From Lentisphaeria bacterium (GTDB lineage: Bacteria > Verrucomicrobiota > Lentisphaeria > Victivallales > Victivallaceae): a stretch of 61,101 nucleotides of DNA. This document shows positions 2,929 to 60,923 of this stretch, piece by piece. The notes beneath the pieces were generated by a model that was given only the letters and a program-made list of their open reading frames with translations, had not been told where the DNA came from and made no database searches. The position numbers were made by a program, and so were the translations under genes. The DNA is taken from assembly GCA_017502435.1 (NCBI GenBank), contig JAFVUZ010000028.1:1-61101 (forward strand), written 5' to 3'. Numbering within the stretch: the first letter of the stretch is position 1; each line of letters opens with the position of its first letter.

Positions 2929-2939
2929 GAGATTTTTTT

Positions 2940-7926: not shown

Positions 7927-7950
7927 ATTAAAATCCTTTCCCTGTTTGTA

Positions 7951-10766: not shown

Positions 10767-10801
10767 AAAAAAAAGTCTCCTTTTCCATAATTTTTGTTCT
10801 T

Positions 10802-10830
10802 AATATAACCTTTATAGAAAGGTTTGTCAA
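10802..10830 (-). promoter_or_regulatory. sigma70-like promoter with embedded palindromic operator
   Basis: On the minus strand: TTGACA (10830-10825), 17-nt spacer, TATATT (10807-10802). The spacer holds the inverted repeat AACCTTT-N4-AAAGGTT (10807-10824). Confidence 0.5.
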
Positions 10831-34886: not shown

Positions 34887-36704
34887 TTATAATGCTTTGA
34901 AATGTATTTGATATTCTGCGGTATTGTCGGCAGTCAGATGCAGGTCAATGCGGTAAAGTCTGCCCCACAGCAGATTGAGTTTGTTGTCATTCAGTTGAAT
35001 TTCTTCTGTACGGGAGATTTTTATGTTGGAGCATTCAAGCAGTATGGGGCCGAGACGCAGTGAGTTTTCTGTTGTATCTGATGGTTCAACGGGTGAGAAA
35101 AAAGTTATATCGATCTCTTTTTTTCCTTCAAATTTGATACTGTCTTTCAGAATCACATTTCCATTTTGCCGGTCAAAATCTACCATGCGTATATATGAAT
35201 TGATTTTGTTTTCAGCAGGGTAGGCATGGGTAATGTCGTAGATTGCACTTTTTTCAGTGACTTTTGCTGTGCAGTAAAAATCTTTTCCAAGTCCCTGATT
35301 ACAGTTGTTGAAGCGGGCGGCGTTATGGCCTTCGCTGTTCAAATACCATATATCATAACGGTTTGCTGAAAAAACTTTCTGATTGTATTCGCCTCTGCCG
35401 ATGTCGATTATCAATGGCTGACCGTTGCGGTGCAGGGTAATGTGTCCGAGGTCGAAATGGCCGTGTGATTCTCCGTTATGGCCGCCTTTGACGGTGAGAA
35501 CAGTTCCTTTGGATGGATTTTCTGGATTCTGACGCATAATGCAGATGTTGATGATATCCCAGAAATCGACGGCATTGAAAGTCCGCAGCATTTTTTTCTC
35601 ATTATCAAGCATAATGTCATAAAATGCTTCGTCAAAAAAGTTGAGATCACGGTTGCCGAGGTGCTTGAATGCCGGATCCGGCGGCGGCATATTCAGTGCC
35701 AGTGACATAAGTTCAGAGGAGTTTGAACATTTGCCGTAGTTATAAAAAAGTCCACGCGGAAACTTCATAATTGAATATTCTGCATCGGCAAAATTTAAAA
35801 ATGTATTGCCGTAAAGATTCAGCCTGGGCAGAAAATCATTCATTGCTTTGAGTTTCGGAGAATTGAAAATATCATCCATTCCGCCGATAATTTTCTGCAT
35901 GACATTCAGATAATTCATCAGCATTCCCACCGAAACCGCCCAGTAACACGGGCCCTCCTGACAGGCTCCGTCATTATAGTATTTGTCAAAAAATCTTTCG
36001 CACGGTATCATGTGTTTGGCTATATGTTTTGCCAGCCGTTCAGTTTCATTGTGCCAGACGGAAAAAGCGGCACAGCTTACTGCATAACTGCACCATACGC
36101 TCCAGTTGTTATCGCCGCCGTACCAATAGCAGTTTTCGTCTGTAAGTTTTTCCGTCACTTCCAGAACACGGTGTGATATTTCATAACGGATACGGCTGCA
36201 GAGCGGTGCGAAATCTTTTTCCAGTTCAGGGCCGAGCAGCTGAAGAGTGTCGCTGAGCAGTTTGGCAGTTTGAGCTGCAAAAAGGTCAACTACCCAGTGT
36301 TCAGGTTCCGGCAGGAGTTTTCCGTTCAGACGTTGATGAGCAGGCCAGCACCAGACAGGTTCGGAAATTGTCTGCCAGAGTATTTCAACGATATTGTCAA
36401 TAAATCTCCCCTTATATTCTGCATATTCTCCCATAACAAGCTGAAAGAGTATTGTACGTCGTTTAATATAAGGTGTTTCATAGGCAATACGGTTGCCTTC
36501 ACGGGCAAATTTCATATAATCAGCCGCCGTCAGCATGGGAATTTCTGCTGCAGCGGCAAGTTCAGCATCACGGATGAATTTCTGTTTTTTTGATTCAGAG
36601 ATATTATTCCGGAAAGAACGGTCGGAGGCGGGAGCGAAATATTGGAAATCTTTGCGTTTTTTTATCTGTTCAAAAATTTTTTCTCTGCTGATAAATTGAG
36701 TCAT
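34887..36704 (-). CDS. heparinase II/III-like family protein
   Basis: KGGHNGESHGHFDLGHI matches the conserved heparinase II/III C-terminal motif. The start is set at ATG 36704 (MTQFISREK) so that it does not overlap the upstream gene (ORF track 36755). Confidence 0.8.
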   Translation of the reverse strand: MTQFISREKIFEQIKKRKDFQYFAPASDRSFRNNISESKKQKFIRDAELAAAAEIPMLTAADYMKFAREGNRIAYETPYIKRRTILFQLVMGEYAEYKGRFIDNIVEILWQTISEPVWCWPAHQRLNGKLLPEPEHWVVDLFAAQTAKLLSDTLQLLGPELEKDFAPLCSRIRYEISHRVLEVTEKLTDENCYWYGGDNNWSVWCSYAVSCAAFSVWHNETERLAKHIAKHMIPCERFFDKYYNDGACQEGPCYWAVSVGMLMNYLNVMQKIIGGMDDIFNSPKLKAMNDFLPRLNLYGNTFLNFADAEYSIMKFPRGLFYNYGKCSNSSELMSLALNMPPPDPAFKHLGNRDLNFFDEAFYDIMLDNEKKMLRTFNAVDFWDIINICIMRQNPENPSKGTVLTVKGGHNGESHGHFDLGHITLHRNGQPLIIDIGRGEYNQKVFSANRYDIWYLNSEGHNAARFNNCNQGLGKDFYCTAKVTEKSAIYDITHAYPAENKINSYIRMVDFDRQNGNVILKDSIKFEGKKEIDITFFSPVEPSDTTENSLRLGPILLECSNIKISRTEEIQLNDNKLNLLWGRLYRIDLHLTADNTAEYQIHFKAL

Positions 36705-36708
36705 AAGA

Positions 36709-37836
36709 TCAGATCCTTTCGCTTTTTTCTTCTGTTTTTTTTGAATCATTGACAAAATTTACAATATTTTTGAGTTCCAATGCGTGCTGATAGGTACTTG
36801 TATGAGTTTGACTGCGTCGCGGCTTTTTCTCTGTGAGGTAAATATTGATGGTTTTTTCTGCGGCAAAAAGCAAACGTTTGACCATTGTCTGCGGCTTGAA
36901 TGCCTGATTCATCACATCTGCAGCAGCCAGTGACGGTCGGCATTGGTGTTTGGCAATGTCGCGTTCAATAAAAGGCAGTGCAAGGCACGCCATTGCAAGT
37001 GAAATGCTGTTACGCAAGCAGCCCGAACTTACCTGACAGTTGCGTTCATAGACAAGATCAAGTGCTTTTTCCATTTCAGGAGAGCCCCAGTTCCGTGCAA
37101 AATACGGCAGAAAATAGGGCAGCAGTCCGAAATCGTGAAATGCTTCCAGAACTGTATCAATATAGCATGAACTTAATACTTTTTCCAATTCCAGAGTCAT
37201 GCGGGAAATCGGAACGTGTTTTATTTTGTCCATATTGACAAAAAGGCTGTTTTCGGCTTTGTCATCGAGGGCGAAGCCGAAACGTCCGACGAGTTTCAAT
37301 GCACGGAGCATACGGACCGGATCTTCCTCAAAACGCACATCCGGTTCACCTATGACACGGACGGTTTTGCTTTCGATATCTTTCAGACCGGAGTTTGTAT
37401 AGTCTATAATCTCTTCTTTTACCGGATCATAAAATAGGGCATTGACAGTGAAATCACGGCGGAAAGCATCTTCTTTTGAAGAACCGAAATTATTATCATC
37501 TACAATCATTTTTTCAGGCAGATGAGCAAGTTTCGGATGATTTTTGAGATCGGATTTGCCGGGAGTCCGCCGGAAAGTGCTTATCTCAACAATTTCACGT
37601 CCCATTCTGTAATGGACGAGACGGAAACGCTTGCCGATTATCATTGTCTGGCGGCGGCCGAAAACTTTGCATATTTCTTCCGGAGTTGCGGCGGTTGAAA
37701 TATCGTAATCTTTGGGAGTATGTCCGAGCAGCAAATCACGGACGGCTCCGCCGACGACGTATGTTTCATAACCTGCATCCTGCAGATTTCTGATAATGTT
37801 TATTATTTTCGGGTCGATGTCAAGGTATTTATGCAT
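36709..37836 (-). CDS. polynucleotide adenylyltransferase / CCA-adding enzyme family protein (PcnB-like)
   Basis: YVVGGAVRDLLLGHTPKDYDISTAATPEE is the class II nucleotidyltransferase head-domain signature; RRDFTVNAL is also present. Confidence 0.85.
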   Translation of the reverse strand: MHKYLDIDPKIINIIRNLQDAGYETYVVGGAVRDLLLGHTPKDYDISTAATPEEICKVFGRRQTMIIGKRFRLVHYRMGREIVEISTFRRTPGKSDLKNHPKLAHLPEKMIVDDNNFGSSKEDAFRRDFTVNALFYDPVKEEIIDYTNSGLKDIESKTVRVIGEPDVRFEEDPVRMLRALKLVGRFGFALDDKAENSLFVNMDKIKHVPISRMTLELEKVLSSCYIDTVLEAFHDFGLLPYFLPYFARNWGSPEMEKALDLVYERNCQVSSGCLRNSISLAMACLALPFIERDIAKHQCRPSLAAADVMNQAFKPQTMVKRLLFAAEKTINIYLTEKKPRRSQTHTSTYQHALELKNIVNFVNDSKKTEEKSERI

Positions 37837-41362: not shown

Positions 41363-43432
41363 ATGAAAAAAACAGATCAGATGATGTTTCGTAAAATCGG
41401 TTCATCACATCAGCCTTCACTTATGAATGCTGATGATATGAAAAAAATTATTGAACTTGATCACGCTCTCTGGGCGGTAAATTCAATTCCGAAAGATGCA
41501 GTGGTTGCAGACCCTGAATTTCTCACTTTTCTTGATACTGACGGCAATGGCAGAATCCGTCCGAATGAACTCCGTGCCGCATTGAAATGGCTGTTTGCAG
41601 TCTTGAAAGATTATTCCGGAATCAATGATAATTCCGATGTTTTGAAATTGGACGCCTTTGATGAAAATCATGCTGAAGGTCCGATGCTGCAGTCTGCAGT
41701 CAAATTGATTTTGAGCAATCTCAACCGTGCGGGCGAAACAGAAATCTCTCTTGCTGATTTGCGTAATACAGCCTCAATTATCGGTGCCGGCAACAGCAAC
41801 GGTGACGGAGTTGTTACTTTGGAAAATACCGAAGATGTTGATTTGGAACGCGTTATCGGCAATGTTATGAAAATTTGCGGTTCCAAAACAGATTTGAGTA
41901 CATTGCAGGGCATTGATACTGAACTTCTGGATGAATATCTGAAACGTGCGGCGGCACAACGTGACTGGCTGAAAGCCGGAGTTCAGCTTGAAATGGATTC
42001 TGTTTACAAGGAAAAAGCGGGCGACTTTTTCAAAATTTATCAGGCGGTCATGGATAAACTTAATGAATATTTCATGCTTTGCGGTGCTTTGACAAATGAA
42101 GATGAGGAACGTTTTGCCGCCCAGATCAAACTTGACCCGAAGAACGTTCAGGCTGTGCAGGAGTTTATTCAGAACGCTCCCATTGCTCAACTCAGTGCCG
42201 TCAAACAGCTTGACATGAGTCGCTGGGTAAATCCGCTGTGGCTCAATAAACTTAAAGATTTTATGGCAGAAGCTTTTGAAGTCGGTGCAATTGCTTCCGA
42301 ATCAATTCTGACTGTTGATGAATGGAACTTAGTTGTCAGCAATTTTGCCGCCCGTCTGCAGTGGAGCAGTACCGGTGCGGATGAAAAATTTGCAGGTATG
42401 AGCATTGAAGATATTGAGCTTGATCTCGCTGAAAATACTGTCACAAAATTGCGTGCACTTATTGAATATGACAAATCTGTTTCTTCAGAGATCAAGGCTC
42501 TTGAAACTTTGCGAAAACTGGCACTTTATCAGAAATATATGCTCCGTTTTGTCAATAATTTTGTTTCGCTTTCTGAGCTTTTCGATCCCAATGTTTTGAG
42601 TATGGTTCAGCCGGGATATGTGGTTATGGGCGGACGTTATTTTGCACTTAATGTCTGTGTCAGCAATCTTGCCGAGCACAAAAAAATCATTCAACGCAGT
42701 AATATCTGTGTCATGTATCTTGCTTTGGAAAGTACTGTTAATAAAGAAGTTCGCAAAATGACCATTGCCAGTGCTGTAACTTCCGGTACGATGCGGAACA
42801 TTTTTGTCGGTAAATGCGGAATTTTTTATGCCGGAGACGGCACTGAATATGACGCCAAGGTCATTGATTTGGTTCAGCAGCCGGTTTCATTTGTAGAGGC
42901 ACTTCTCCAGCCGTTCTATTCGTTTGGCAGTTTCATGACCAAACAGGCGGACAAATTTTTCTCCACCCGTTCGAAAGATGTTGAAACTGCGGTCAATAAG
43001 CAGGTCAATACCGCCGCCAAGGGTGATGCTTCCAAACTTATGAATACGCAGGAGGTCAAACAGACTCCGGCAATCAGCGGTTCAATGCTTCTTATGGGCG
43101 GCGGCGTCGGTCTGGCAGCCCTCGGTTCATCCGTGGCGTTTATAACCAATACTCTCAAAGGAGTTCCGGTCTGGAATATTGTAGCGGTGCTTTTTGGTAT
43201 TGCATTAACTATCAGTGCCCCGATGATGCTGGTTTCAATAGTTAAATTGCAGAACCGCCGGATTTCTGATTTCTTTGCTGCCGGCGGCTGGGCAGTCAAT
43301 CTGCATATGCGTCTGAGCCGCAAAATGGGACTGCTTTTCACCCGTAAACCGCATATTCCATTCTGTGCAATTTTGCGTGGCGACCTGGTAAATATGCTTA
43401 AATATGAGGGTGTAACACGCAAAAAGAAATAA
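41363..43432 (+). CDS. EF-hand-containing, C-terminally membrane-anchored protein of unknown function
   Basis: Canonical EF loop DTDGNGRIRPNE (41534-41569) and a second loop-like NSNGDGVVTLEN (41792-41827). Two C-terminal TM helices. It starts 2 nt after the lnt stop. Confidence 0.75.
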   Translation: MKKTDQMMFRKIGSSHQPSLMNADDMKKIIELDHALWAVNSIPKDAVVADPEFLTFLDTDGNGRIRPNELRAALKWLFAVLKDYSGINDNSDVLKLDAFDENHAEGPMLQSAVKLILSNLNRAGETEISLADLRNTASIIGAGNSNGDGVVTLENTEDVDLERVIGNVMKICGSKTDLSTLQGIDTELLDEYLKRAAAQRDWLKAGVQLEMDSVYKEKAGDFFKIYQAVMDKLNEYFMLCGALTNEDEERFAAQIKLDPKNVQAVQEFIQNAPIAQLSAVKQLDMSRWVNPLWLNKLKDFMAEAFEVGAIASESILTVDEWNLVVSNFAARLQWSSTGADEKFAGMSIEDIELDLAENTVTKLRALIEYDKSVSSEIKALETLRKLALYQKYMLRFVNNFVSLSELFDPNVLSMVQPGYVVMGGRYFALNVCVSNLAEHKKIIQRSNICVMYLALESTVNKEVRKMTIASAVTSGTMRNIFVGKCGIFYAGDGTEYDAKVIDLVQQPVSFVEALLQPFYSFGSFMTKQADKFFSTRSKDVETAVNKQVNTAAKGDASKLMNTQEVKQTPAISGSMLLMGGGVGLAALGSSVAFITNTLKGVPVWNIVAVLFGIALTISAPMMLVSIVKLQNRRISDFFAAGGWAVNLHMRLSRKMGLLFTRKPHIPFCAILRGDLVNMLKYEGVTRKKK

Positions 43433-43553: not shown

Positions 43554-45851
43554 ATGAGTATTATTGACTGGCTGATCGTAATAATTCCGGTAGGATTTAT
43601 TATGTATATGGCTTATTATGTCAGACGTTTTATCACAGGGGTATCAGATTTTCTGGTATGCGGACGTGTATGCCGCCGTTTTGTTATTTCCACGGCGAAC
43701 ATGGCGAATGCTCTCGGTTTGATTACGCTGATTGCATATATTGAGGTTCATTACAAAACCGGTTTTGCGTTGACATTCTGGAACAGTATCACGTTCCCGC
43801 TGGGACTTGGAATGTCGCTTTTCGGTTATTGTTTTTACCGTTTCCGTGAAACAAGGGTTATGAGTATCGGTCAGCTGCTGGAAATGCGTTACAACAGACC
43901 TTTGCGTATTTTTGCAAGTTTTCTGCGTTCGATTGCGGAAATGATGGCAAATATCATCATGCCTGCAATTGCCGCACGTTTTTTTATTGCATATTTGGAT
44001 CTGCCGCAGAAAGTATCGCTTTTCGGTCTCGAAATTCCGACTTTTATGATAATAGTTTTGGTTCTGCTGACACTGGCTATTGCTATTATCTACATGGGCG
44101 GTATGCTGGCTATCAATGTTACTGATACGATTCAGGGTATTATCTGTTTTCCGGTCATTACCATATTTGTCATCTATTTTCTGGTCAAACTGTCATGGCC
44201 GAATGAAATTGCACAGGTATTGGTTGACCGTGTCCCGGGTGAAAGTTTTATCAATCCGTATGACATCAGCAAATTGAGAGATTTCAATCTTTTTATGCTG
44301 CTGACCAGCATTATGAGTCTTGTTTTGAATGCACTGGCAGGTTATACCGGCAACAGTAACTCTTCCATCAGTGCACATGAATCAAAAATGGCAAGTGTTA
44401 TTGCGACATGGCGTGGTGCATTCACCTTTATTTTCTTCATTATTTTTGCACTTGCGATCATTACTATCATGAATCATGTCAATTTTGCCAAGGAGGCAAA
44501 AGATATCCGTGTTTCAATCTCAGAAAATATTGCCGAGGAACTTATTCCCAATATTACTGAACGTGAAAAGTTTATGAATGTCATCAAGGCAATTCCCGCC
44601 TCAACTCACGTTGTCGGCAAGGGGACTCCGATGTCTCAAGAGCAGAATGCAGATACCGTTTATTTTGAAACTGCACAGAAATATTTCGGAACAGATGGTT
44701 CCGGAAGTTCCAAAACTCAGCAGTACAAAACACTTTTCGGTCAGTTGATGCTGCCTGCAGTTATGCGTCATATTCTGCCGGTCGGACTTTCAGGACTTTT
44801 CTGTCTGATGATTGTGATATTTATTATTTCTACTGATGACAGTCGAATATACAGTGCCTGTTCAACTCTGGTACAGGACTGTGTGGTTCCGTTTTACAAA
44901 AACGGACAGTTGTCACCGCAAGCACATATCCGCTGGATTCGCGGCATTGCTATATTTATTGGAATATTCTTTTTCTGCGGATCGTTTTTCATGTCGCAGA
45001 TCGACTATATCAATATGTTTGTGCAGATCATGTATGGTATGTGGATGGGCGGCTGCGGTCCGATGCTGCTTTTCGGTATTTATTCCAGATTCGGAACGAC
45101 AGCGGGAGCATGGGCATCACTGTTGTCCGGTATGTTTGTAAGTTTCTGCGGTATTTTCCTGCAGCGTGGATGGGCGAAAACGATTTATCCGTGGCTTGAG
45201 GAAAATGGTATGGTTGAAGCTGTCGGCAATTTCCTTGAAACTGTTTCCGGTCCTTTCAATCCCTACATTGTCTGGGAAATGAACCGTTTGAAATGTCCGA
45301 TCAATGCATACGAATTTTTCTTTATGTCAATGGTTGTTTCTCTGGCTGTTTATTGGATCGTTTCAGCGATAACTTTCCGCAAGCCGTTCAATCTGGATCG
45401 TATGCTGCACCGCGGTATTTATTCTGTTGAAGGCGAAAAGAAAAAAGCTGAAAAAATCACTATAAAAACTATCTGGGGTAAACTTATCGGATTTACTCCC
45501 GAACATACCAGAGGCGATAGAATTTTAGTTGTTTCAGTTTTCTGCTACACATTTGTTTACAAGTTCTTTCTGGCATTTATCTGTGTAGTTATCTGGAACG
45601 CTATTTCTCCGTGGCCGCTGAAGTGGTGGGGAAATTATTTTCTGATTGTCAGTCTGGTGATTCCAGGTATTGCGGCCGCATTCTCAACTGTATGGTTCAG
45701 TATCGGCAGTACGATCGACTTGAGACGTCTGTTTGAAGCGTTGAGAAACCGTGTTGCCAATCCGCTTGACAACGGTATGGTTGACGGAGAAGTCGCCATA
45801 TCTGAAAAACAGAAATTTGAAGAACTTGAAAAAGAAAAAACAGATAAATAA
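43554..45851 (+). CDS. sodium:solute symporter (SSF) family transporter, unusually long
   Basis: Many TM helices with SSF-like N-terminal organisation, 765 aa. GGAG RBS and an extended -10 (TGTTATATT at 43480-43488) upstream. Confidence 0.8.
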   Translation: MSIIDWLIVIIPVGFIMYMAYYVRRFITGVSDFLVCGRVCRRFVISTANMANALGLITLIAYIEVHYKTGFALTFWNSITFPLGLGMSLFGYCFYRFRETRVMSIGQLLEMRYNRPLRIFASFLRSIAEMMANIIMPAIAARFFIAYLDLPQKVSLFGLEIPTFMIIVLVLLTLAIAIIYMGGMLAINVTDTIQGIICFPVITIFVIYFLVKLSWPNEIAQVLVDRVPGESFINPYDISKLRDFNLFMLLTSIMSLVLNALAGYTGNSNSSISAHESKMASVIATWRGAFTFIFFIIFALAIITIMNHVNFAKEAKDIRVSISENIAEELIPNITEREKFMNVIKAIPASTHVVGKGTPMSQEQNADTVYFETAQKYFGTDGSGSSKTQQYKTLFGQLMLPAVMRHILPVGLSGLFCLMIVIFIISTDDSRIYSACSTLVQDCVVPFYKNGQLSPQAHIRWIRGIAIFIGIFFFCGSFFMSQIDYINMFVQIMYGMWMGGCGPMLLFGIYSRFGTTAGAWASLLSGMFVSFCGIFLQRGWAKTIYPWLEENGMVEAVGNFLETVSGPFNPYIVWEMNRLKCPINAYEFFFMSMVVSLAVYWIVSAITFRKPFNLDRMLHRGIYSVEGEKKKAEKITIKTIWGKLIGFTPEHTRGDRILVVSVFCYTFVYKFFLAFICVVIWNAISPWPLKWWGNYFLIVSLVIPGIAAAFSTVWFSIGSTIDLRRLFEALRNRVANPLDNGMVDGEVAISEKQKFEELEKEKTDK

Positions 45852-45913: not shown

Positions 45914-45979
45914 ATTCAGAATTTGTTTTTTCTGAATTTTATTGTATATTATTGCAATTTTGTTATCCGGAGGTTTTTT

Positions 45980-46867
45980 GTGTTTATTGGAATTTTATTT
46001 CTGGTTCTGACCAGTATTTTGTGGGTGGTACAGGGAGCTGTCGTCAGTGTGGCGGCGGAGAAAAAATTGAATCTTTCGGCGATTCAAACTTTTATGGCTT
46101 TTATTATCATGTGTTTGACATTGCCGCTTTTTTTCGTTGCCGGTAAAGTAAATATTATCATTGTTATTGCCCTGATTGTCGGCGGTATTTGCAATTGCGG
46201 AGCAAATCTGCTGATGAATCTGGCAATGAAAAATGGTCCTCACGGCATGACCTGGGCGATTTCTCAAAGTGCTTTTGTAATACCTTTTATCATGGGTATC
46301 TTTGTTTTTAAAGTTCCGTGTTCTCCGATTCGTGCCGCAGGAATTATTCTGCTGTTGATTTCAATGGCAGTCATGGGGATTTACGGCAAAAAAGATGATG
46401 GAGGGCAGGGGACCGGTAAATTCAAATGGATTATTTTCTGCGTACTTGCATATATTGTTATTGGAATGTCACAGTGCGGCGGCAGTTTGCCATCATATTT
46501 CATTGCTGATTCAGTCAGCAGTATATCCAATGTGCTTTTCCGTGTAGGCTTGTTGTGTACGGGGATTTTCATCGGAGGATTGCTTAACTGGATGTTTGTT
46601 GACCATATTCCGGTATGCAGAAACGGTTTTGCAAAACAGACTTTTTTGTTGACCGCCAGTACAATTACATCAAGTCTTTTGACATTTAAAGCGTTTGATA
46701 TTATTACCGGATATGATGCCGGAGCGATCGGCTATCCGGTCATAACCGGTTTGTCCATTGCATTTTTCTTTGTCTATACCGCAGTTAAACTTAAAGAAAA
46801 ACTGTCAATTCCTGCAATTATCGGAGTTTTGCTCTGTCTATCAGGGATTGCCGGAATTATTTTTTAA
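45980..46867 (+). CDS. DMT (EamA-like) superfamily membrane transporter
   Basis: About 10 predicted TM helices in two halves. GTG 45980 sits 6 nt after GGAGG. The ORF-track start at 45923 gives an implausible N-terminus. Confidence 0.7.
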   Translation: MFIGILFLVLTSILWVVQGAVVSVAAEKKLNLSAIQTFMAFIIMCLTLPLFFVAGKVNIIIVIALIVGGICNCGANLLMNLAMKNGPHGMTWAISQSAFVIPFIMGIFVFKVPCSPIRAAGIILLLISMAVMGIYGKKDDGGQGTGKFKWIIFCVLAYIVIGMSQCGGSLPSYFIADSVSSISNVLFRVGLLCTGIFIGGLLNWMFVDHIPVCRNGFAKQTFLLTASTITSSLLTFKAFDIITGYDAGAIGYPVITGLSIAFFFVYTAVKLKEKLSIPAIIGVLLCLSGIAGIIF

Positions 46868-53326: not shown

Positions 53327-53420
53327 ACAGCGGGATTTTTGCAAGTTTTTTTATGTAATAATTTTTTTGAAAAAAATTTGTTTTTCCTCTTGACAAAACA
53401 GTAAACCATTATATCGTGAA

Positions 53421-53442
53421 AGTAAACTATAAACAGTTTACT
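53421..53442. promoter_or_regulatory. candidate operator (8-bp inverted repeat) in front of the second GntR-type regulator
   Basis: AGTAAACT (53421-53428), N6, AGTTTACT (53435-53442), 12 nt before ATG 53454. A further half-site CAGTAAAC lies at 53399-53406, and a TTGACA at 53390-53395. Confidence 0.4.
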
Positions 53443-53453
53443 TCAGGAATATA

Positions 53454-54551
53454 ATGTCAATGAAGAAGAAAAATCAAGGTGAAAAAACTGAATTTGCCAA
53501 ACAGCTGATCGTTTGTCTTATGCGTGATTTGAACATGAAAGCAGGCGATAAACTGCCGTCTCAAAATGAATTGAGACTGCAATTCAACGTCGGTGCAACC
53601 ACCATTCAGCGGGCAATCGATACTCTCGCAAAATCCGGAATTCTGGAAATCCGTCCGCACAAAGGCGTTTTTGTCAAAAATCAGGATACTGACGGCTTTA
53701 TCGCCCGGCAAATAGGACTTGTCTCCATGTGGAGAACTTTTCAGCCTGCGTCGGCCTCGATGATGCAGTGTCTGCAGCTGCAGTTGCATCAGAACGCCTG
53801 TCAGTGCAAACTTTTTATGCGTAACTTTCCGGAAATGACACTTACAGATTCACTTTCATATTTTGACGGTTTGAAACGTTGTATTGAGCAGAAGGAAATT
53901 CAGGGGCTTATAACTACAGTTTCATTAGATTATGAAGCGTGGGATTTTCTGAATAAACATAAAATTCCGGTAGTTTCACTGGATTCTGCAACATTCAACA
54001 AAGGTTTTAAAGTTTGTGATTCAGATTATCTGGCGGATTTTTTTGTCATGGCGGCAAAACGTAATTTAAAACGTCCGGCTCTGCTGCATTGCGGATTTCC
54101 TGTAACTGATAAAATCCGTGATACTTTTATGGAAAACTGTCCTCTTGATCCTGAAATTTACTGCTGTTTCCTGCAGACTGATATACAAGTTGAAGATAAA
54201 CCCTTTGAATGGACAGAAAAATTGATAACTGTTCTGCATGGTTTCAGTATTATGCCGGCAAACAAACGTCCCGATGTTTTGTTCATTCCCGATGATATAA
54301 TAATGAATATTGCTCACCGTGAAATTGTGAAAATGCAGTTGAACGGAGTGGATTGGCATCCTCATTTTATTTATTCTGTCAGTAAACAGATACCGATTAT
54401 TCCGAAAGGATTGATTGCAGGAGAGCGTTTTGAATACGATATAATGAAGAAGGCAGAAACTGCAGTAAAACTGCTGCTTGACGTTATCTGCGGCAGAAAA
54501 AACGAAGCAGAAACAATTTATATACATCCGGAAATCCAAATAACCCCTTAA
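53454..54551 (+). CDS. GntR-type wHTH + periplasmic-binding-fold (LacI-like) regulator
   Basis: LPSQNELRLQFNVGATTIQRAIDTLAKSGILEIRPHKGVFV (GntR HTH) followed by a ~290-aa sugar-binding-fold-like domain. Confidence 0.85.
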   Translation: MSMKKKNQGEKTEFAKQLIVCLMRDLNMKAGDKLPSQNELRLQFNVGATTIQRAIDTLAKSGILEIRPHKGVFVKNQDTDGFIARQIGLVSMWRTFQPASASMMQCLQLQLHQNACQCKLFMRNFPEMTLTDSLSYFDGLKRCIEQKEIQGLITTVSLDYEAWDFLNKHKIPVVSLDSATFNKGFKVCDSDYLADFFVMAAKRNLKRPALLHCGFPVTDKIRDTFMENCPLDPEIYCCFLQTDIQVEDKPFEWTEKLITVLHGFSIMPANKRPDVLFIPDDIIMNIAHREIVKMQLNGVDWHPHFIYSVSKQIPIIPKGLIAGERFEYDIMKKAETAVKLLLDVICGRKNEAETIYIHPEIQITP

Positions 54552-54566
54552 CAGAAAGGATATAAA

Positions 54567-55340
54567 ATGAAAAAACACTCAACTCAAATCGCCGGGAAGT
54601 TCACTTTGATTGAACTGTTAGTCGTCATTGCAATTATCGCAATTCTTGCAGGTATGCTGCTTCCGGCTCTGAGCAAAGCACGAGACCGGGCTTATGCTGC
54701 AGACTGTACCTCAAAACTAAAACAGATTGCTATGCAGCAGAATATGTATCTGGATGATTTTGACGGTAATTTTCAACATCATTCCTCAACTTATGAAACT
54801 GCCGCGGAATGTCCGTGGGGCTATATATTGGAAAAGTCAGGTTATATAAAAGTAGAAAAAAAAGCAGCGTCTGTCAGATGCAGACCTATTTTTAATAAAT
54901 ATGCCCAGACTTCCGCTGCTGATTACAAAGAAGACTGGACCAGCGATCAGTTTTCATGGAGTTGTAAATTGACATATGGAATGTCCGGTGTGCTTATCGG
55001 CCGCAAAACCAATGCCTGGCTTGATAATGGTCCCGGAATCAAAGATATTTATACAAAACCTGCCAAATTATCAAAAATTACAGCTCCTTCAAAAACACTT
55101 ATGCTTTCTGATTATTATACCGATGAAGGCAATATTACCAGAGGCTATCCTACTATTATTTATGACGGCAGTATGTCTCCCGGAAGTAATACAGATTATT
55201 ATTATCCTGAAGCCCGTTACAAACTGCATGGCAATAAATTCAACATTGCCTATGTTGACGGTCATGTTTCTGCTGTTGTTCCGAATGATATTTATACTAA
55301 AAATGAAAAGAAAAAAAATGTATTTCTTTACAATGAATAA
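54567..55340 (+). CDS. prepilin-type N-terminal cleavage/methylation protein with H-X9-DG motif (DUF1559 family)
   Basis: [33 protein letters not shown] at the N-terminus. C-terminal HGNKFNIAYVDGH is an exact H-X9-DG. Confidence 0.9.
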   Translation: MKKHSTQIAGKFTLIELLVVIAIIAILAGMLLPALSKARDRAYAADCTSKLKQIAMQQNMYLDDFDGNFQHHSSTYETAAECPWGYILEKSGYIKVEKKAASVRCRPIFNKYAQTSAADYKEDWTSDQFSWSCKLTYGMSGVLIGRKTNAWLDNGPGIKDIYTKPAKLSKITAPSKTLMLSDYYTDEGNITRGYPTIIYDGSMSPGSNTDYYYPEARYKLHGNKFNIAYVDGHVSAVVPNDIYTKNEKKKNVFLYNE

Positions 55341-55362
55341 ATAATAAAAGCAAGGTTAAAAA

Positions 55363-58300
55363 ATGAAAACAAAATTATTTTTTGCCGCTGCTTCAGCAAT
55401 GATGGCTATGCATCTTGCGGGAGCGGACCCGACGATTTATATCTCTTTTGACAAAACTGCCCAGGCAGATTTCGGCGGCACTGCTAACAGCAGAACCACA
55501 GTCGCCGGTCTCCGTGATGCTATCGGTGTCAAACCTGTTTTGCGGGTGAAAAAAGGGAAAAAAGGTCAAAAATATCAGGCCGATACTTTTCTCCAGCCCG
55601 GCATCAAAGGAAAAGCATTCCCCGTCGGTGAAACTTCCACCGGAGAAATCCTGACTCTCGTTTACAAAATCAATCCGAAACTTCCTGCCGCAAACGGTAC
55701 TGTTTCCATGTGGGTCAAACCCGTAACATGGGACGGAAAATCTCTGGCTCAGCATCATTTGTTTTCCGGCCGCAACGGCAACCACTGGCTGTTTTTGTAC
55801 AAATACGGCAATGTCCGTGATTTTTTGGGATATTACGGAACTTATACCGAAAAAAATCAAACCACCGTCCGTTCTGCAGTCAACAGCTGGAAAAAAGGCG
55901 AATGGCATCATATCGCCGCTACATGGAACAAGGATAATTTTTCACTCTATATTGACGGCAAACTCCGCAAACATTCAATGATGAAAGCCATTCTCAAAGA
56001 TGACTTCGCTGAAATTGTGCTGGGTGAGCATTGGGCAGGCAAGCCCGGGCAAACTTTGCTCGATGAAGTGAAAATTTATGATAAAACTCTCACTCCGGAT
56101 GAAATCAATGCTGAATATGAGTCATTGAAAAGCAATCTCGCTTCAAGCGGACGTGCAGACGTTGAAATTTCTGTCAGCAAAACAACTCCAACTACCGATG
56201 GCGTTATCAAAAAAAACGAATATTCCGCTGTCATCGGCGGAATGCGTGATTTAAAAAAGAAAAATAATTTTGCCACCAGTCAGAGTATCAGCCATTATGC
56301 ATGGGATGATAACAATTTTTATTTTGCTGTAATTTCACCTGCTGTAAAAAAAAATGAGTATCTTGCCGGCAGAGACAGTGAAGTTTTTACAGAAGATTCA
56401 ATCGAACTCTATCTGAAATCCGATGCATTGTATCAGTTTATAATCAATCCCCGCGGTACTGTTTATGATTCCAGAAATTCTGACAGCAAATGGAACTGCA
56501 GCACTATTGCAACTTCCGGTAAATTTGTCGGCCCCAACTGGATAATTGAAGGCAGAATCCCATGGAAAGAAATCAATTTCAAACCGCAGGACAATGCAGA
56601 ATTAAAATTCAATATCGCCAGAAATTTTGCGGATACAAAAAACTTCACTCATATATCTTCATCACGGACATCTTTCGGTGAAGAAAAAGGATTCGGTAAA
56701 ATAATTCTGAAAAAAAATATTCCTTTTTATGATTTCTCGCAGCTCGGCAAACTTCATGCTTCAACAGGCGATGCGAAACTTTTAATCAACTCAGCTAAAA
56801 AACAGCAGGTTCAGATAAAATACAATGTTGATGCCTCTATGTTCGCAATCAACATTGACCAGAAACTGCCTCTCGATGCCGGTAAAACTTTCCAGCATAA
56901 TATCAAACGCAGACTTCCTGCAGACAGTACGCTTTTTTACTCAGTTGATACAAGCGTTGACGGTCCGTTGTATTACCTCCGTATGGATTATCAATCTCCG
57001 GAAAGTCTGAAACTCTGGTATATCCATACCGATCTTGCCAATAAAAAACTCTTTTTCAATTTCCGCAATAACCGCCTCGGCGAAGGGAAATGCACCATCC
57101 AGCTGGATATGGTCAGCAATGACGGCAAAAAAGTTCTCTCTGAAAGTGTAAAAATCAATGATGCCAAAATTGTTGAAAGTGTATCTTTTGATATTGCAAA
57201 TATTCCCTCCGGTTATTACTTTCTGAACTATAAATTGATCGACCCCGCAGGCAAAGTTTATGTTTCAGATAAAGAGGAATACTCTATTTTTCACAACGGA
57301 GCCCCCTGGGACAATATTCAGGACGGACTTGAAGATACTCTGGTTCCGCCGTGGACTCCCATCAAGTCTGAAGGCAGCCGTTTTGAATGCTGGAACAGAA
57401 GTGTCGTTCTCGGCGGCAGCGGACTGATCAGCAATATCAAATCTGCCGGAGCGGAAATGCTCAGACAACCTGTAATTCTCAAGGTGAACGGAGAAAGTAT
57501 TCCTTTCAAAGCTGAATTTGTAAACAAAAACAATACCAGAGCCAATTATATTCTCAAATCAACTGTTGCTTCAGTGCCATTGGAATTCAATGTGTACTGC
57601 GAATTTGACGGCTTCATGTATTTTACCGGTAAATTTACAAAAGAATTTGCCGTTAAAAATATCGATCTTGTAATTCCTCTCAAACGTCAATATGCTGATG
57701 CTTTTGATGACTGTGCCAGCTGCTATTACAAGACTTCATTGAAAAAAGATGGTCTCAATATCAGTTTGAATGCCTTTATAAATCAGTTTTTCTGGTGCGG
57801 AGGCGACAAAGTCGGTATCATGGGAGGAACCGCAAATAAACGCGGATGGCACGTCAAAGAAAAAGCACAGTCCATGAATATTAAAACTTCAAAAGATGAA
57901 GTTATGCTCAAATTGAGTATCGTTGACAGTCAGTTCAAAGCCAAAGCAGGTCACTTTTTCGCTTTCTATCTGCAGCCGACTCCGGTCAAACCCAAAAATA
58001 ATAAATTCCGCGGTGCTCAGGAACGCTACAATGTAATCATCGGCGGCCAAAGTCACAGATTCTATGAATTCGATGTTCCCGGATATTATGATACTTTCTG
58101 GAAATGGATTCATCACAGAGTCAGAGCGGATAAACGCAATACTGTTGAAAAAATGCAATATTATTCCTATACCGCTCCCAAAGGCGTTTCCCCGATGTCT
58201 CCGATATGGAATTACTACTGTACTGACTGGGTAAATCCGCCTCCCGGTCTCGGACAATATTCCGCTGATAATCCCGACATTGCAAAACGTGCAAGCAGAA

Positions 58301-59268
58301 ACCGCAATTCTTTTACTTACGGCTGTCTCAATTCAAAGAGTTTCTTTGATTTCAAAATATACAGCATGAGAAATAAACTTATTGACGGTGTCAAATATAA
58401 GCAATCCGACATAAAAAATCTCTATTTCGACCTCGCATGGGCAAAAAACTGCAACAACAAAGTTCACGGCTGTTCATACAAAGATGCTTTCGGAGATAAC
58501 GTAAATGATACCGATTTGCTGAAACTCCGTGAGTATTACCTGCGTGTGTACCGTATGTTGAAAAAGAAAAATCCCGACGGCATTTTCTGGGGACATCTCT
58601 TTACTGCCAGAACTCCGGCTGATGTTTTCTTTGATTTTGTCAGTATGGGAGAAATGTATGACAACAAAGTTTACAAACAAAAGTCATATTACAATGTTTT
58701 GTCTCCGGAACTCATGCGTATCGCATACGGCACAAGAACCAACGAAATGTGTATGTCTCTGATTCCGCAGTTCCTGCGTTCTCTGGAATGTTTTGCACCT
58801 GAAAATGTCAGAACATGGGATCCCTTCCTGCCGGAAAATGACCGTGCAGTCAGACATTATATGGCGTATTGTTCAATCTTCAATATGGATCATGTTTTCA
58901 GTGTATGGCTGAAAGGACAGAGACTTGCTCCCGACGATAAAGCTCAGGTGGCAGTTTACAACAAAAATATGTCTTTGCTCGGACTTGACCGTTCATATTC
59001 CAGAGATTGCGTTATTGCACCTGCCAATCCCAATATCCTCGCCTGTACATTTGACGGCAATGGTAAAATGGTTGTCATTGTTTTGAACGATACTGATACT
59101 CAAAATACCGTAACTGTAAAGATTCCTGAAAATTTGCAGAAAGAATTTGCAAATGCTTACGGAAATGATATCTTTAAGAAAACAAAACATTCTCTGGTCA
59201 ATGGAACTTTGAAAATCACCCTCGACAAGAGAGAGTCTGCAACTATTTTATTTGAAAAAGCAAAATGA
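55363..59268 (+). CDS. giant secreted protein: LamG/concanavalin-like domain + CBM9-like domain + large uncharacterised C-terminal region (putative glycoside hydrolase)
   Basis: Signal peptide MKTKLFFAAASAMMAMHLAGA. LamG-like block (VSMWVKP...WHHIAATWNKDNFSLYIDGKL...LDEVKIYDKTL). CBM9-like block (TDGVIKKNEYS...WDDNNFYFAV...EDSIELYL...FNIARNF). Confidence 0.8.
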   Translation: MKTKLFFAAASAMMAMHLAGADPTIYISFDKTAQADFGGTANSRTTVAGLRDAIGVKPVLRVKKGKKGQKYQADTFLQPGIKGKAFPVGETSTGEILTLVYKINPKLPAANGTVSMWVKPVTWDGKSLAQHHLFSGRNGNHWLFLYKYGNVRDFLGYYGTYTEKNQTTVRSAVNSWKKGEWHHIAATWNKDNFSLYIDGKLRKHSMMKAILKDDFAEIVLGEHWAGKPGQTLLDEVKIYDKTLTPDEINAEYESLKSNLASSGRADVEISVSKTTPTTDGVIKKNEYSAVIGGMRDLKKKNNFATSQSISHYAWDDNNFYFAVISPAVKKNEYLAGRDSEVFTEDSIELYLKSDALYQFIINPRGTVYDSRNSDSKWNCSTIATSGKFVGPNWIIEGRIPWKEINFKPQDNAELKFNIARNFADTKNFTHISSSRTSFGEEKGFGKIILKKNIPFYDFSQLGKLHASTGDAKLLINSAKKQQVQIKYNVDASMFAINIDQKLPLDAGKTFQHNIKRRLPADSTLFYSVDTSVDGPLYYLRMDYQSPESLKLWYIHTDLANKKLFFNFRNNRLGEGKCTIQLDMVSNDGKKVLSESVKINDAKIVESVSFDIANIPSGYYFLNYKLIDPAGKVYVSDKEEYSIFHNGAPWDNIQDGLEDTLVPPWTPIKSEGSRFECWNRSVVLGGSGLISNIKSAGAEMLRQPVILKVNGESIPFKAEFVNKNNTRANYILKSTVASVPLEFNVYCEFDGFMYFTGKFTKEFAVKNIDLVIPLKRQYADAFDDCASCYYKTSLKKDGLNISLNAFINQFFWCGGDKVGIMGGTANKRGWHVKEKAQSMNIKTSKDEVMLKLSIVDSQFKAKAGHFFAFYLQPTPVKPKNNKFRGAQERYNVIIGGQSHRFYEFDVPGYYDTFWKWIHHRVRADKRNTVEKMQYYSYTAPKGVSPMSPIWNYYCTDWVNPPPGLGQYSADNPDIAKRASRNRNSFTYGCLNSKSFFDFKIYSMRNKLIDGVKYKQSDIKNLYFDLAWAKNCNNKVHGCSYKDAFGDNVNDTDLLKLREYYLRVYRMLKKKNPDGIFWGHLFTARTPADVFFDFVSMGEMYDNKVYKQKSYYNVLSPELMRIAYGTRTNEMCMSLIPQFLRSLECFAPENVRTWDPFLPENDRAVRHYMAYCSIFNMDHVFSVWLKGQRLAPDDKAQVAVYNKNMSLLGLDRSYSRDCVIAPANPNILACTFDGNGKMVVIVLNDTDTQNTVTVKIPENLQKEFANAYGNDIFKKTKHSLVNGTLKITLDKRESATILFEKAK

Positions 59269-60923
59269 ATTCTGAAAATAAAAAATTAGAAATCAATCAG
59301 GTTCGAATGAACGGTCCGCTTGGAAAAGCGTTGACCGTTTCAGTCAGCAACAGATTGAAAAAGATCAATTATACTGAATTGGTTGATCCTTTCCGCTTCC
59401 GCAGCGAAACAGATTTCAAATGGCGTTGCGAATTCTGGGGCAAAATTGTTCGTTCCGCTATTCTTGCATGGAAATATGCTCCGGATGATGAACTTCTTGC
59501 AATTATTAAAGCAACCGTAAAAGATATTATTTCAACTCAGACTCCCGACGGCTGCATAAGTTCATATCCCGCAGACAAACAGCTCGGCGGCTGGGATGTC
59601 TGGGGTAGAAAATATGTTCTTGCAGGACTGTTGCGGTATTATGAAGTGATTGAAAAATCTCCTGAAGTCCTTAATGCCTGCTGCAAAATGACAGATCATC
59701 TGCTTTCGCAGATCGGTAATGGCAATATTGTCGATATGGGGGAACATTTCGGTCTCGCTTCGGCAAGTATTTTGAAGTATATTGTCAAACTTTACAAGTA
59801 TTCCGGCAACAGAAAATATCTTGAGTCTGCCGAAAAAATAATCGCTGCCGGTGCAACTCATCTGCACAATATTTTTGAAGATGCTGCCGATGATGTTCTT
59901 CCCGCAGAACTTGCCAACGGTAAAGCGTATGAAATGACTTCATGTTTTGAAGGACTTGCCGAATATTACAATCTTTTCCCCGAAGATAAACACCTTCAGG
60001 CAATTTTGAATTATTACAAAAATGTCCGTGACAATGAAATTTATATCACAGGAACGGGCGGCTTCAAGGATTTTAACGGTGAATTCTGGTATAACGGTGC
60101 ATGGCGGCAGACATGGCTGCATGGCGGCGGCATGGGGGAAACCTGCGTGACGACCACATGGCTGCATTATTGTCAGTATATTCTGGAATTGACCGCAGAT
60201 TCAGCTGTTGCGGATGAAATGGAACTTTCCGCATACAACGCACTTCTCGGTGCAATGAAAGTTGACGGTACAAACTGGATTCACCGCAATCCGACACCGC
60301 TTGCCGCTCCCGCCTTCAAAATTGCTTCAAAACCGCAAATGGATGATTTCGGCGACCATGACTGCTGTCTGGCCCAGGGGCCTGAAGGATTGGCAACTGC
60401 TGTAAATAGTGCGTTTTCGGCAAAAGATAAACTTTTTGTCAATTTTTATGAAGATGCAGAAATTGATTTTTCGGTGCAGAATTGCAATGTCAGTATGACG
60501 ATTTCCGGAAATTACCCGTCTCAAAACAGCGTGAAAATCAAATTTGCCGCAGATGCAAAAGCATATTTCACTCTGGCACTGCGTATTCCCGCATGGTCGG
60601 AAAATACAGTTGTTAAATTAAACGGCAAAACCTTCACTCCTGAAAAAGGCAAATATTTTGAGCTTGCTGAAAAATGGAGTTCTGAATCCGAAATTGAAAT
60701 AATTTTTGATATGAAACTTCAAAAAATCACGGCTCCCGGAAATGCGGATTTTCATGCGTTCAAATACGGACCTTTTGTCCTTGCTCATGACTCAAGAGAT
60801 GCTGAAGTTTTACGGAGCAAATCTCTTTTCATGACAGAAACAGACGGAATAAATTTCTGTGATTATGCAACAAGCGGCAATGATTTTTCTCCGGAAAATA
60901 CTTTGCAGGTCTGGTTTGAGTAA
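59265..60923 (+). CDS. glycoside hydrolase family 127-like (beta-L-arabinofuranosidase, DUF1680)
   Basis: GETC (Glu/Cys of the zinc site) and HDCCLAQGPEG (Cys-Cys pair) match the GH127 Cys3-Glu zinc / cysteine-nucleophile arrangement. ATGA overlap with the preceding gene. Confidence 0.8.
   Translation: MNSENKKLEINQVRMNGPLGKALTVSVSNRLKKINYTELVDPFRFRSETDFKWRCEFWGKIVRSAILAWKYAPDDELLAIIKATVKDIISTQTPDGCISSYPADKQLGGWDVWGRKYVLAGLLRYYEVIEKSPEVLNACCKMTDHLLSQIGNGNIVDMGEHFGLASASILKYIVKLYKYSGNRKYLESAEKIIAAGATHLHNIFEDAADDVLPAELANGKAYEMTSCFEGLAEYYNLFPEDKHLQAILNYYKNVRDNEIYITGTGGFKDFNGEFWYNGAWRQTWLHGGGMGETCVTTTWLHYCQYILELTADSAVADEMELSAYNALLGAMKVDGTNWIHRNPTPLAAPAFKIASKPQMDDFGDHDCCLAQGPEGLATAVNSAFSAKDKLFVNFYEDAEIDFSVQNCNVSMTISGNYPSQNSVKIKFAADAKAYFTLALRIPAWSENTVVKLNGKTFTPEKGKYFELAEKWSSESEIEIIFDMKLQKITAPGNADFHAFKYGPFVLAHDSRDAEVLRSKSLFMTETDGINFCDYATSGNDFSPENTLQVWFE

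Follow-up and report, generated by a model that had tools for sequence, protein, structure and literature searches.

Cassettes pairing pilin-like H-X9-DG proteins with sugar-type regulators and large, probably exported enzymes recur in Lentisphaerota

We analyzed a stretch of 61,101 nucleotides from a Lentisphaeria bacterium (contig JAFVUZ010000028.1 of assembly GCA_017502435.1, positions 1 to 61,101), here called the window, which carries two gene cassettes, A and B, with the same gene order. In each, a sugar-type transcriptional regulator is followed by a prepilin-type H-X9-DG protein and then by a large protein with a signal peptide. The association of regulator, pilin-like protein (hereafter pilin) and large protein is not due to chance and represents a recurrent, non-random module. 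The reading that we prefer, with a probability of roughly 0.4, is that the variable head of each pilin serves as a private adaptor for the neighboring enzyme on a pseudopilus similar to that of type II secretion systems (T2SSs).

Cassette B lies on the forward strand. It starts with regulator B (53454-54551, 365 aa), which combines a GntR-type winged helix-turn-helix (HTH) with a divergent LacI/AraR-like effector domain. After a gap of 15 nt follows pilin B (54567-55340, 257 aa) and, after a further 22 nt, a 1301-aa candidate exported multidomain enzyme (55363-59268), whose stop codon overlaps by 4 nt (ATGA) with the start of a GH127-like enzyme of 552 aa (59265-60923). Cassette A is on the reverse strand, where the end of regulator A (8652-10766, 704 aa; GntR HTH, LacI-like binding domain and C-terminal DUF4434) overlaps the start of pilin A (7951-8655, 234 aa) by 4 nt, and the partner of pilin A, a 946-aa exported DUF6259 protein (5086-7926), begins 24 nt after it. 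An earlier note, made by a model from the letters of the window, had given the coordinates, strand and spacings of cassette B exactly, as an open reading frame (ORF) check confirmed, together with the recurrence of the same regulator, pseudopilin and giant-protein order on the other strand at 5086-10830. A six-frame motif search of the window detected prepilin-type N-termini in pilins A and B only. The two cassettes are small separate islands and not parts of one large locus, with housekeeping genes lying between them (MurA, ComM, GH20, Dxr, RseP, IspG, P-type ATPase, Tgt, XseA, Lnt and MacB). Just past window position 1, a longer contig of the same organism adds a third pair (locus L005, 19205-20705), in which a LacI-type regulator gene stands before a DUF1559 pilin-like gene. 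MurA from the window shares 66-71% identity with proteins assigned to Lentisphaeria, Victivallales, Victivallaceae and Victivallis vadensis, so that this gut bacterium is an uncultured, Victivallales-like member of Lentisphaerota.

For the neighborhood analysis, 80 loci were fetched from species-representative genomes by means of the conserved helix of the family, which gave 95 non-redundant family members. Genes were called with a simple and crude ORF caller, and the neighborhood counts are lower bounds because this caller missed at least one pilin (in locus L096, recovered afterwards). Among the 43 Lentisphaerota pilins, 16 had a sugar-type regulator directly upstream and 20 had a protein of at least 600 aa directly downstream, against a baseline of 15% of genes coding for proteins of that size. 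The corresponding numbers were 0 and 4 for the 35 Verrucomicrobiota pilins and 1 and 2 for the 17 pilins from other phyla. The upstream same-strand neighbors (n = 45) matched the Pfam families GntR (13), Peripla_BP_3 (13) and LacI (3). Downstream same-strand neighbors matched LamG, CBM9, GH123_N, DUF4838, beta-helix, rhamnosidase, polysaccharide lyase, GH5 and sulfatase families. Viewed from the side of the regulators, 17 of the 27 sugar-type regulators found across the fetched loci and the window were located directly upstream of a same-strand pilin.

The adjacency was compared with 10,000 permutations of gene order within each of 31 Lentisphaerota loci, the window being excluded. A regulator followed by a pilin was observed 14 times (2.2 expected), a pilin followed by a protein of at least 600 aa 18 times (5.4 expected), and the complete order of regulator, pilin and big protein 9 times (0.4 expected); none of the 10,000 shuffles matched the observed count for any of the three arrangements. 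The position after a pilin was also enriched in exported proteins, since 15 of 19 proteins of at least 450 aa directly after a pilin had a signal-peptide-like N-terminus versus 20 of 71 such proteins at other positions in these loci (Fisher p = 1e-4). Enrichment of pilin genes beside sugar-type regulators and large proteins, a form of the check that the earlier note had suggested for Lentisphaerota, Planctomycetota and Verrucomicrobiota, was thus borne out in Lentisphaerota but not as a property of Planctomycetes-Verrucomicrobia-Chlamydiae (PVC) bacteria in general. A PVC-wide regulator/pilin/enzyme rule was rejected for this sample, in which 0/35 Verrucomicrobiota pilins had an upstream regulator.

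The pilin and the enzyme are also kept together over long evolutionary distances. Among relatives of the 1301-aa enzyme in metagenomes, a pilin was found directly upstream in 7 of the 8 assessable cases, down to 20-25% enzyme identity. Five pilins with heads resembling that of pilin B (in loci L001, L003, L090, L093 and L112) all precede a homologue of the giant enzyme, and the heads of these five and of pilin B are each other's best and only clear relatives; any head similarity at all was seen in 4.6% of all pilin pairs. Head identities within this clade follow the enzyme identities (45%/46%, 29%/35% and 26%/34%). Co-divergence is documented for this one clade only, because head similarity was not detectable among pilins that precede other shared enzyme types, for example DUF4838 proteins. 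While the pilin-enzyme pair stays, the regulator HTH varies between GntR, LacI and AraC types and the accessory enzyme between GH127 and GH78. Even within this one clade, the HTH of the regulator may be of the GntR or the LacI type, and the fourth gene may code for GH127 or GH78. The same succession of regulator, pilin and then enzymes was present in contexts with precomputed Pfam annotation (L001, L003, L105, L109, L110 and L112), and L103 showed a GntR/SBP regulator, a pilin, a peptidase M55 and a 715-aa protein.

Two further loci bear on how pilins are allotted to enzymes. In L014 (6527-13693), pilins and enzymes alternate on one strand, in the order pilin, 798-aa protein, pilin, DUF4838 protein. 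L015 (5628-11709) holds a pilin before an esterase and, further on, a pilin before a heparinase-like lyase and another before a polysaccharide lyase. Since a pilin lies upstream in 7/8 cases, heads and enzymes co-diverge, and each enzyme has its own pilin in L014 and L015, the pilin-enzyme pair is therefore an inherited unit, though not an obligatory one for the enzyme family. The pairing looks one-to-one, closer to one pilin per exported enzyme gene than to one per locus. The suggestion that each pseudopilin paralogue is a dedicated partner of one glycan-degrading locus consequently stood with regard to locus specificity, as the same enzyme clade is kept and co-diverges, but not with regard to one pilin per locus, given the alternation in L014 and L015. 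A different arrangement was seen in L111 (1012-16762), where a GH127 gene, a pilin and a LamG/CBM9/GH123_N giant occur in another order behind an AraC-type regulator, the giant following the pilin after two small ORFs. The neighbors there include an SSF symporter, a sialate-O-acetylesterase-like gene, another esterase and a GH78 rhamnosidase, which hint at the substrate and at the missing transporter.

Pilins A and B share 37 of 54 identical residues (69%) counted from F1, the first 24 being identical, whereas no similarity was detectable beyond these 54 residues. The near-identical N-termini and diverged C-terminal parts noticed at the outset are hence well founded. The DNA encoding the shared N-terminus differs at synonymous positions, so that the helix is kept by purifying selection at the protein level. 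Recent duplication or gene conversion as the source of the shared N-terminus is ruled out by these synonymous differences, which together with the enrichment over shuffled gene order agree with a modular cassette rather than a recent duplication. Pilin B consists of a leader (MKKHSTQIAGK), an invariant helix from F12 and a variable head of ~195 aa with an exact H221-X9-D231-G232 motif and then H233, a residue that does not vary in the family alignment. Pilin A has the leader MKKT, the same helix and an unrelated head with H197-X9-D-M in place of the DG motif. An alignment of 24 family sequences revealed invariance from F1 to about residue 28, two conserved cysteines, a YG motif and an H-X4-N-X4-DGH block, whose H, N, D and H vary hardly or not at all. 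The pilin family is built of a constant stalk and a hypervariable head.

Profile searches placed the N-terminal helix of both proteins among pilins. PF07963 (N_methyl) gave 21.3 and 21.7 bits for the two pilins (cut-off 21.2) and TIGR02532 gave 21.7 and 22.0 bits (cut-off 16.3); the Phe at +1 and the Glu at +5, invariant across the family, are present in both. TIGR01710 (GspG) scored 31.4 and 39.8 bits against a cut-off of 88.85, over the first ~50-60 residues only and not over the full length. The family profile aligned from F1 with solved mature pilins, namely Thermus PilA (1e-15), geopilin (3e-14), Myxococcus PilA (1e-9) and GspG (1e-6). For the C-terminal part, TIGR04294 (H-X9-DG) gave 17.7 bits for pilin B and 14.6 bits for pilin A (cut-off 19). 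PF07596 (DUF1559, SBP_bac_10) matched pilin A with 34.2 bits (cut-off 23.3), over profile positions 2-36 of 268 only. Pilin B showed no direct PF07596 match, and its head scanned alone was also without a Pfam match; relatives of 45-48% identity have precomputed PF07596 matches, described as "faint" on both contigs examined. The earlier domain calls therefore hold for the prepilin N-methylation domain in both proteins and for the exact H-X9-DG motif in pilin B, while the DUF1559 and TIGR04294 assignments of pilin B stay below threshold. In an AlphaFold2 model of pilin B (predicted local distance difference test, pLDDT, 73.5), a 51-residue helix (14-64) is predicted to lead into a small alpha/beta head made of short helices and a five-stranded region, and a C-terminal hairpin holds the H-X9-DG block. 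A Foldseek search of the PDB returned no structural relative of the head, and the helix alone was matched (FimA, E = 0.4). A search with the pilin B head found 17 relatives at E<=1e-3 in a set of 1.84 billion representative proteins, compared with at least 7931 matches for the full-length protein.

The residue preceding the putative cleavage site deserves separate mention. Type IVa prepilins carry Gly at -1 and Phe at +1 (PMC3584216). In the window the residue at -1 is Lys in pilin B (54567-54602) and Thr in pilin A (8644-8655), so the class III prepilin signal reported for pilin B held in its Phe(+1)/Glu(+5) helix and failed at the Gly(-1). In the sampled family members this position varies with the phylum. 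Gly or Ala occupied this position in 20 and 13 of 35 Verrucomicrobiota sequences and in 7 and 8 of 17 sequences from other phyla, compared with 3 and 0 of 40 in Lentisphaerota and 3 and 5 of 119 among the closest database relatives. Lentisphaerota sequences mainly have K, S, N, R or T there, preceded by a leader of 3-12 basic residues. Because Gly is absent at -1, cleavage by a prepilin peptidase is not assured, and these sequences suggest either a peptidase with a relaxed requirement at this position or proteins that stay uncleaved.

The large protein of cassette B matched Laminin_G_3 (2.8e-22, residues 106-249) and GH123_N (1.2e-10, residues 648-879) in Pfam behind a signal-peptide-like N-terminus. 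A CBM9 module (PF06452), also proposed earlier, was not found in it when residues 251-600 were scanned alone at E<=10. It was detected in a 47%-identical orthologue in L001 (26.7 bits versus a cut-off of 23.4, residues 311-431), so that the LamG assignment stands for the window protein and the CBM9 assignment for the orthologue only. The GH123 profile (PF19543) was matched at positions 325-591 of 969, short of a whole enzyme, and a sequence search of the PDB gave no GH123 chain, the LamG part alone finding an arabinanase domain (1.9e-6). The C-terminal 662 aa had 43 homologues, all unnamed. AlphaFold2 modeling of residues 640-1301 with a 27-homologue alignment predicted, with high confidence (pLDDT 87.7, predicted template modeling score 0.91), a beta-sandwich, a (beta/alpha)8 barrel and a C-terminal beta-sandwich. 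Foldseek matched this model with probability 1.00 to a Flavonifractor alpha-galactosaminidase (E = 4.5e-16) and the Streptococcus alpha-galactosidase SpAga (template modeling score 0.50). Further matches of the same probability were a GH101 endo-alpha-N-acetylgalactosaminidase, GH97, GH31 and amylase-type enzymes and a beta-L-arabinopyranosidase, the top matches thus being alpha-galactosaminidase, alpha-galactosidase and GH101 enzymes rather than GH123. D1023 and E1097 are invariant and located just after predicted barrel strands. The predicted layout comprises a signal peptide, LamG, a CBM9-like region (seen in the orthologue), a GH123_N-like beta-sandwich, a TIM barrel and a C-terminal beta-sandwich. 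The protein had been described as glycan-binding, which falls short of the predicted glycosidase fold of its C-terminal 662 aa; on this model it is probably a glycoside hydrolase of an uncharacterized family with LamG-type and CBM9-type modules.

The last gene of cassette B had rightly been assigned to GH127. It matched the catalytic domain PF07944 (112 bits, 3.2e-32), the middle domain PF20736 (66 bits, 2.6e-18) and the structure 4qjy (6.9e-25). Besides both domains, it contains the Glu-x-Cys and Cys-Cys motifs of GH127 beta-L-arabinofuranosidases as E292-x-C294 and C367-C368, which we take to be equivalent to the zinc and nucleophile residues of HypBA1. It has no signal peptide, would be translationally coupled to the preceding gene through the ATGA overlap, and is ~100 aa shorter than solved enzymes. 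The family of the 1301-aa protein recurs beside GH127, GH78 rhamnosidase and esterases, which points to arabinose- and rhamnose-containing plant glycans as the likely substrate. In cassette A, the 946-aa protein matched DUF6259 (3.6e-10), has a signal-peptide-like N-terminus and found no relative in a sequence search of the PDB. The large proteins of the two cassettes show little or no relationship to each other, and the same holds for regulators A and B, in keeping with the difference between the cassettes noticed before.

The regulators would fit control by sugars. In regulator B the GntR HTH was evident (Pfam, 1.4e-13), and the C-terminal 280 aa gave no direct Pfam or PDB match. A profile built from 14 other pilin-adjacent regulators, with regulator B left out, aligned to its residues 6-213 and 329-361 with 58.5 bits, and a profile of 16 such regulators including regulator B matched structures of LacI, CcpA and PurR (~1e-43) and of the effector domain of AraR (3tb6, 3.4e-33). 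Because the family profile matches these LacI, CcpA, PurR and AraR structures, regulator B is regarded as AraR-like but divergent in architecture; the winged HTH named in the earlier note is visible directly, and its periplasmic-binding fold through the family profile only. Regulator A matched GntR (3.4e-05), Peripla_BP_3/4 (about 1e-3) and DUF4434 (1e-30), and its residues 94-290 matched the NCBIfam entries EbgR, UriR and PurR-like. It is a three-part fusion, and the joining of a DNA-binding regulator to the uncharacterized DUF4434 is unusual. A search for PDB relatives of the DUF4434 part found none.

One promoter-like site together with a palindrome precedes each regulator. In cassette B, a sigma-70-like sequence on the forward strand (TTGACA-16-TATCGT, 53390-53417), which scored 10/12 in a consensus scan and is a pattern match alone, lies 37 nt 5' of the regulator start codon. 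Directly after its -10 box stands a candidate operator, the perfect inverted repeat AGTAAACT-N6-AGTTTACT (53421-53442, forward strand), which occurs once in the window when up to 3 mismatches are allowed. On the reverse strand, cassette A has a sigma-70-like promoter (TTGACA-17-TATATT, 10802-10830) scoring 11/12 in the same kind of scan, with the perfect palindrome AACCTTT-CTAT-AAAGGTT (10807-10824) inside it as candidate operator. We infer that the palindromes may be binding sites of the adjoining regulators; they differ in sequence, as expected for regulators of different specificity. No terminator-like sites were found in the short intergenic gaps of the cassettes. Such features suggest that the cassettes would be co-transcribed, autoregulated operons under sugar-induced repressors.

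A mechanism that would join these features treats each cassette as a self-contained sugar-inducible operon with a promoter and palindromic operator, an AraR/LacI-type repressor, a pilin and a large Sec-exported enzyme, to which cytoplasmic accessory glycosidases would sometimes be added. The pilin would be a subunit of a shared T2SS-like or type IV pilus-like machine whose genes would lie in another part of the genome. The invariant helix of the pilin (F1, E5 and ~20 further residues) argues for a shared assembly machine and co-polymerization, as it would allow all paralogues to use one platform and join one filament. A locus-specific job in the envelope is indicated by the hypervariable head, the one-to-one pairing, the co-divergence and the control by sugar repressors, and the fast-evolving head of ~190 aa would confer that specificity. 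In the periplasm, the processed and assembled pilin may contact the co-induced enzyme through its head and act as a dedicated adaptor, either for passage of the enzyme through the outer membrane or for its retention on a short surface fiber. By selecting among pilin-enzyme pairs, the sugar signal would program what the cell exports or displays. The orthologous L001 contig contains a T2SSE-type ATPase and RcpC.

Several findings weigh against the adaptor reading. The 61-kb window contains no secretin, ATPase, platform, peptidase or other T2SS or type IV pilus assembly genes, and the canonical Gly at -1 is missing from Lentisphaerota pilins. The model of the head is of moderate confidence and has no structural relative. 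The loci were selected around pilins with a crude gene caller, and the shuffle is blind to operon structure. A large downstream partner accompanies only about half of the sampled Lentisphaerota pilins. L104 holds three tandem pilins and no enzyme or regulator. Conversely, an enzyme homologue in L092 is without a neighboring pilin. In L106 (226-12662) there is likewise no pilin beside a 941-aa homologue of the catalytic part (P0135), which lacks the LamG region and is clustered with a 1432-aa protein, a GDSL esterase, GH95 and an alpha-L-fucosidase. Finally, a head that binds the glycan substrate would lead one to expect co-location and co-divergence just as much. The pilins could accordingly be glycan-capturing pilus subunits whose head is a lectin for the polysaccharide cut by the neighboring enzyme, the induced pilins forming a surface, possibly retractile, fiber that brings glycan to a cell-bound enzyme or to the periplasm. 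We regard this as the main rival, only somewhat less probable than the adaptor. The adjacency and co-divergence would fit because enzyme and glycan specificity change together, almost all downstream partners are carbohydrate-active, and the family profile matches type IV pilins (1e-15) more strongly than GspG (1e-6). There is also a precedent in Planctomycetes, where gold-labeled dextran decorates pili-like fibers emerging from crateriform structures and the authors speculate about fiber-linked uptake (PMC5394234). However, the head has no recognizable carbohydrate-binding fold or relative, and the enzymes already bear LamG and CBM9-type modules. The separate pilin for each enzyme in L014 and L015 fits a partner per protein better than a partner per glycan, and the partners are enriched specifically in exported proteins.

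An uncleaved bitopic protein of the inner membrane, with a short basic leader, a helix that serves as signal anchor and a periplasmic head, would not need a filament and might serve as a membrane-bound chaperone or scaffold for the neighboring enzyme or as a periplasmic oligosaccharide receptor. This is unlikely, even though 37 of 40 Lentisphaerota members and both window pilins lack Gly at -1, assembly genes are absent nearby in the window, and the ~190-aa heads exceed those of classical pseudopilins. A plain anchor would hardly account for F1, E5 and ~20 helix residues staying invariant in hundreds of paralogues from different phyla, and a buried Glu is costly unless paired with a free N-terminus in a filament. 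Moreover, Verrucomicrobiota members keep G or A at -1 (33/35), and solved mature pilins align from exactly F1. We consider it quite improbable that there is no functional coupling, that is, that the position of these numerous DUF1559 genes (a few per cent of genes) reflects history or a well-expressed leader gene. The family is indeed extremely abundant, with at least 7931 matches and extra copies in most 20-kb loci. Many copies are solitary or in tandem, and two of 68 paralogues are essential in Planctopirus in a family still without known function (PMC10632474). Yet the enrichment over within-locus shuffles is 6-fold to 20-fold, with none of 10,000 shuffles reaching the observed counts. The adjacency persists with unrelated enzyme folds and down to 20-25% enzyme identity, the heads co-diverge with the enzyme, and start and stop codons overlap. 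The private-adaptor reading is preferred on this balance. Its fuller form, a T2SS-like machine whose cargo specificity is set by interchangeable pseudopilins acting as sugar-induced private adaptors, with a peptidase that does not need Gly(-1), is possible though less likely than not.

Elsewhere in the window, other glycan-related genes at 2871-4031, 15479-17329, 33165-34034 and 34887-36755 (BNR sialidase-like, GH20, GDSL esterase and heparinase II/III-like) are scattered among housekeeping genes with no pilin gene directly beside them. Not every such gene has a pilin partner here, therefore. The BNR sialidase-like gene lies ~4 kb from pilin A, past the 946-aa ORF and a Lactamase_B gene. Three consecutive forward-strand ORFs (41363-43432, 43554-45851 and 45923-46867, coding for 689, 765 and 314 aa) gave no Pfam match at E<=1e-4.

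The cassettes tie single DUF1559 paralogues to a defined regulator and exported enzyme and thereby offer a first testable function for the family. If the heads are cargo adaptors, this bears on substrate choice by T2SSs, which is still unsettled, and cargo selection by interchangeable pseudopilins, if true, would be a new principle of T2SS substrate selection as well as the first DUF1559 function. If the heads are lectins, the cassettes would represent pilus-based glycan capture in gut and rumen bacteria that does not use SusC/D. The absent Gly at -1 predicts an unusual prepilin peptidase or uncleaved proteins. The cassettes also mark several uncharacterized families as likely glycan degraders, namely the LamG/GH123_N-like giant, DUF6259, DUF4838 and DUF4434.

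In a full-text literature search on DUF1559, H-X9-DG and Lentisphaerae or Victivallis pseudopilins and prepilins, no paper was found that connects such proteins with carbohydrate-active enzymes or regulators. Each part belongs to a known kind, and the wiring of pseudopilin paralogue, enzyme and sugar repressor is undescribed in the searchable literature. The pilin-adjacent regulators resemble AraR-type regulators in joining a GntR HTH to a domain matching LacI/AraR, and cassette B adds a GH127 beta-L-arabinofuranosidase-like gene. They differ from AraR in the very divergent effector domain of regulator B and the extra DUF4434 of regulator A. The closest precedent for the adaptor reading is the Pul system of Klebsiella, in which MalT, the maltose regulator, controls the secretion machine and pulA together. 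For its export, the large glycosidase PulA depends on pseudopilus assembly by the T2SS (bioRxiv 10.1101/2022.09.21.508927). Our cassettes share with that system a GspG-like pseudopilin helix with E5, a putative sugar-responsive co-regulation and, as cargo, a large Sec-exported enzyme that degrades a sugar polymer. Unlike Pul, they have one pilin-like gene per enzyme and no ATPase, platform, secretin or minor pseudopilin set, and their very many paralogous pilins each have their own ~190-aa head and miss the Gly at -1.

With the DUF1559/H-X9-DG family of Planctomycetota and Verrucomicrobiota (PF07596, TIGR04294), the pilins share the N-terminal helix, the C-terminal H-X9-DG(H) strand pair and massive paralogy. 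The huge expansion of this family in PVC bacteria, and its lack of an assigned function, had been stated correctly, as Planctopirus and Rhodopirellula have 68-74 copies and the papers call the function unknown (PMC10632474, PMC2754498). In contrast to other DUF1559 proteins, the Lentisphaerota copies alone are wired to AraR/LacI-type regulators and large exported enzymes (16/43 versus 0/35 in our sample) and alone have lost Gly/Ala at -1, and pilin B falls just below the curated thresholds. Type IV pilus-type fibers or neighboring proteins that bind polysaccharide, with a genomic or physical link to glycan degradation, are also found in the crateriform fibers of planctomycetes and the tapirins of Caldicellulosiruptor, where the type IV pilus/tapirin locus adjoins a glucan degradation locus (bioRxiv 10.1101/359786, PMC5865380). 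However, a single pilus locus in each genome covers several substrates there, with no one-pilin-per-enzyme pairing described and no DUF1559 link shown. With regard to the polysaccharide utilization loci (PULs) of Bacteroidota, neither a SusC-like TonB-dependent transporter nor a SusD-like protein was found in cassettes A and B or in the related cassettes examined. No transporter genes lie inside the window cassettes, while SSF symporters sometimes occur near related ones. Unlike Bacteroidota PULs, the cassettes use a cytoplasmic repressor-type regulator and a pilin-like non-catalytic partner. Nevertheless, like these PULs, they are compact, substrate-specific, sugar-regulated units in which a sensor or regulator is combined with a non-catalytic protein of the envelope and with glycosidases both outside and inside the cell; each genome has many divergent copies, and the comparison of the cassettes with a PUL that dispenses with SusC/D is a fair analogy.

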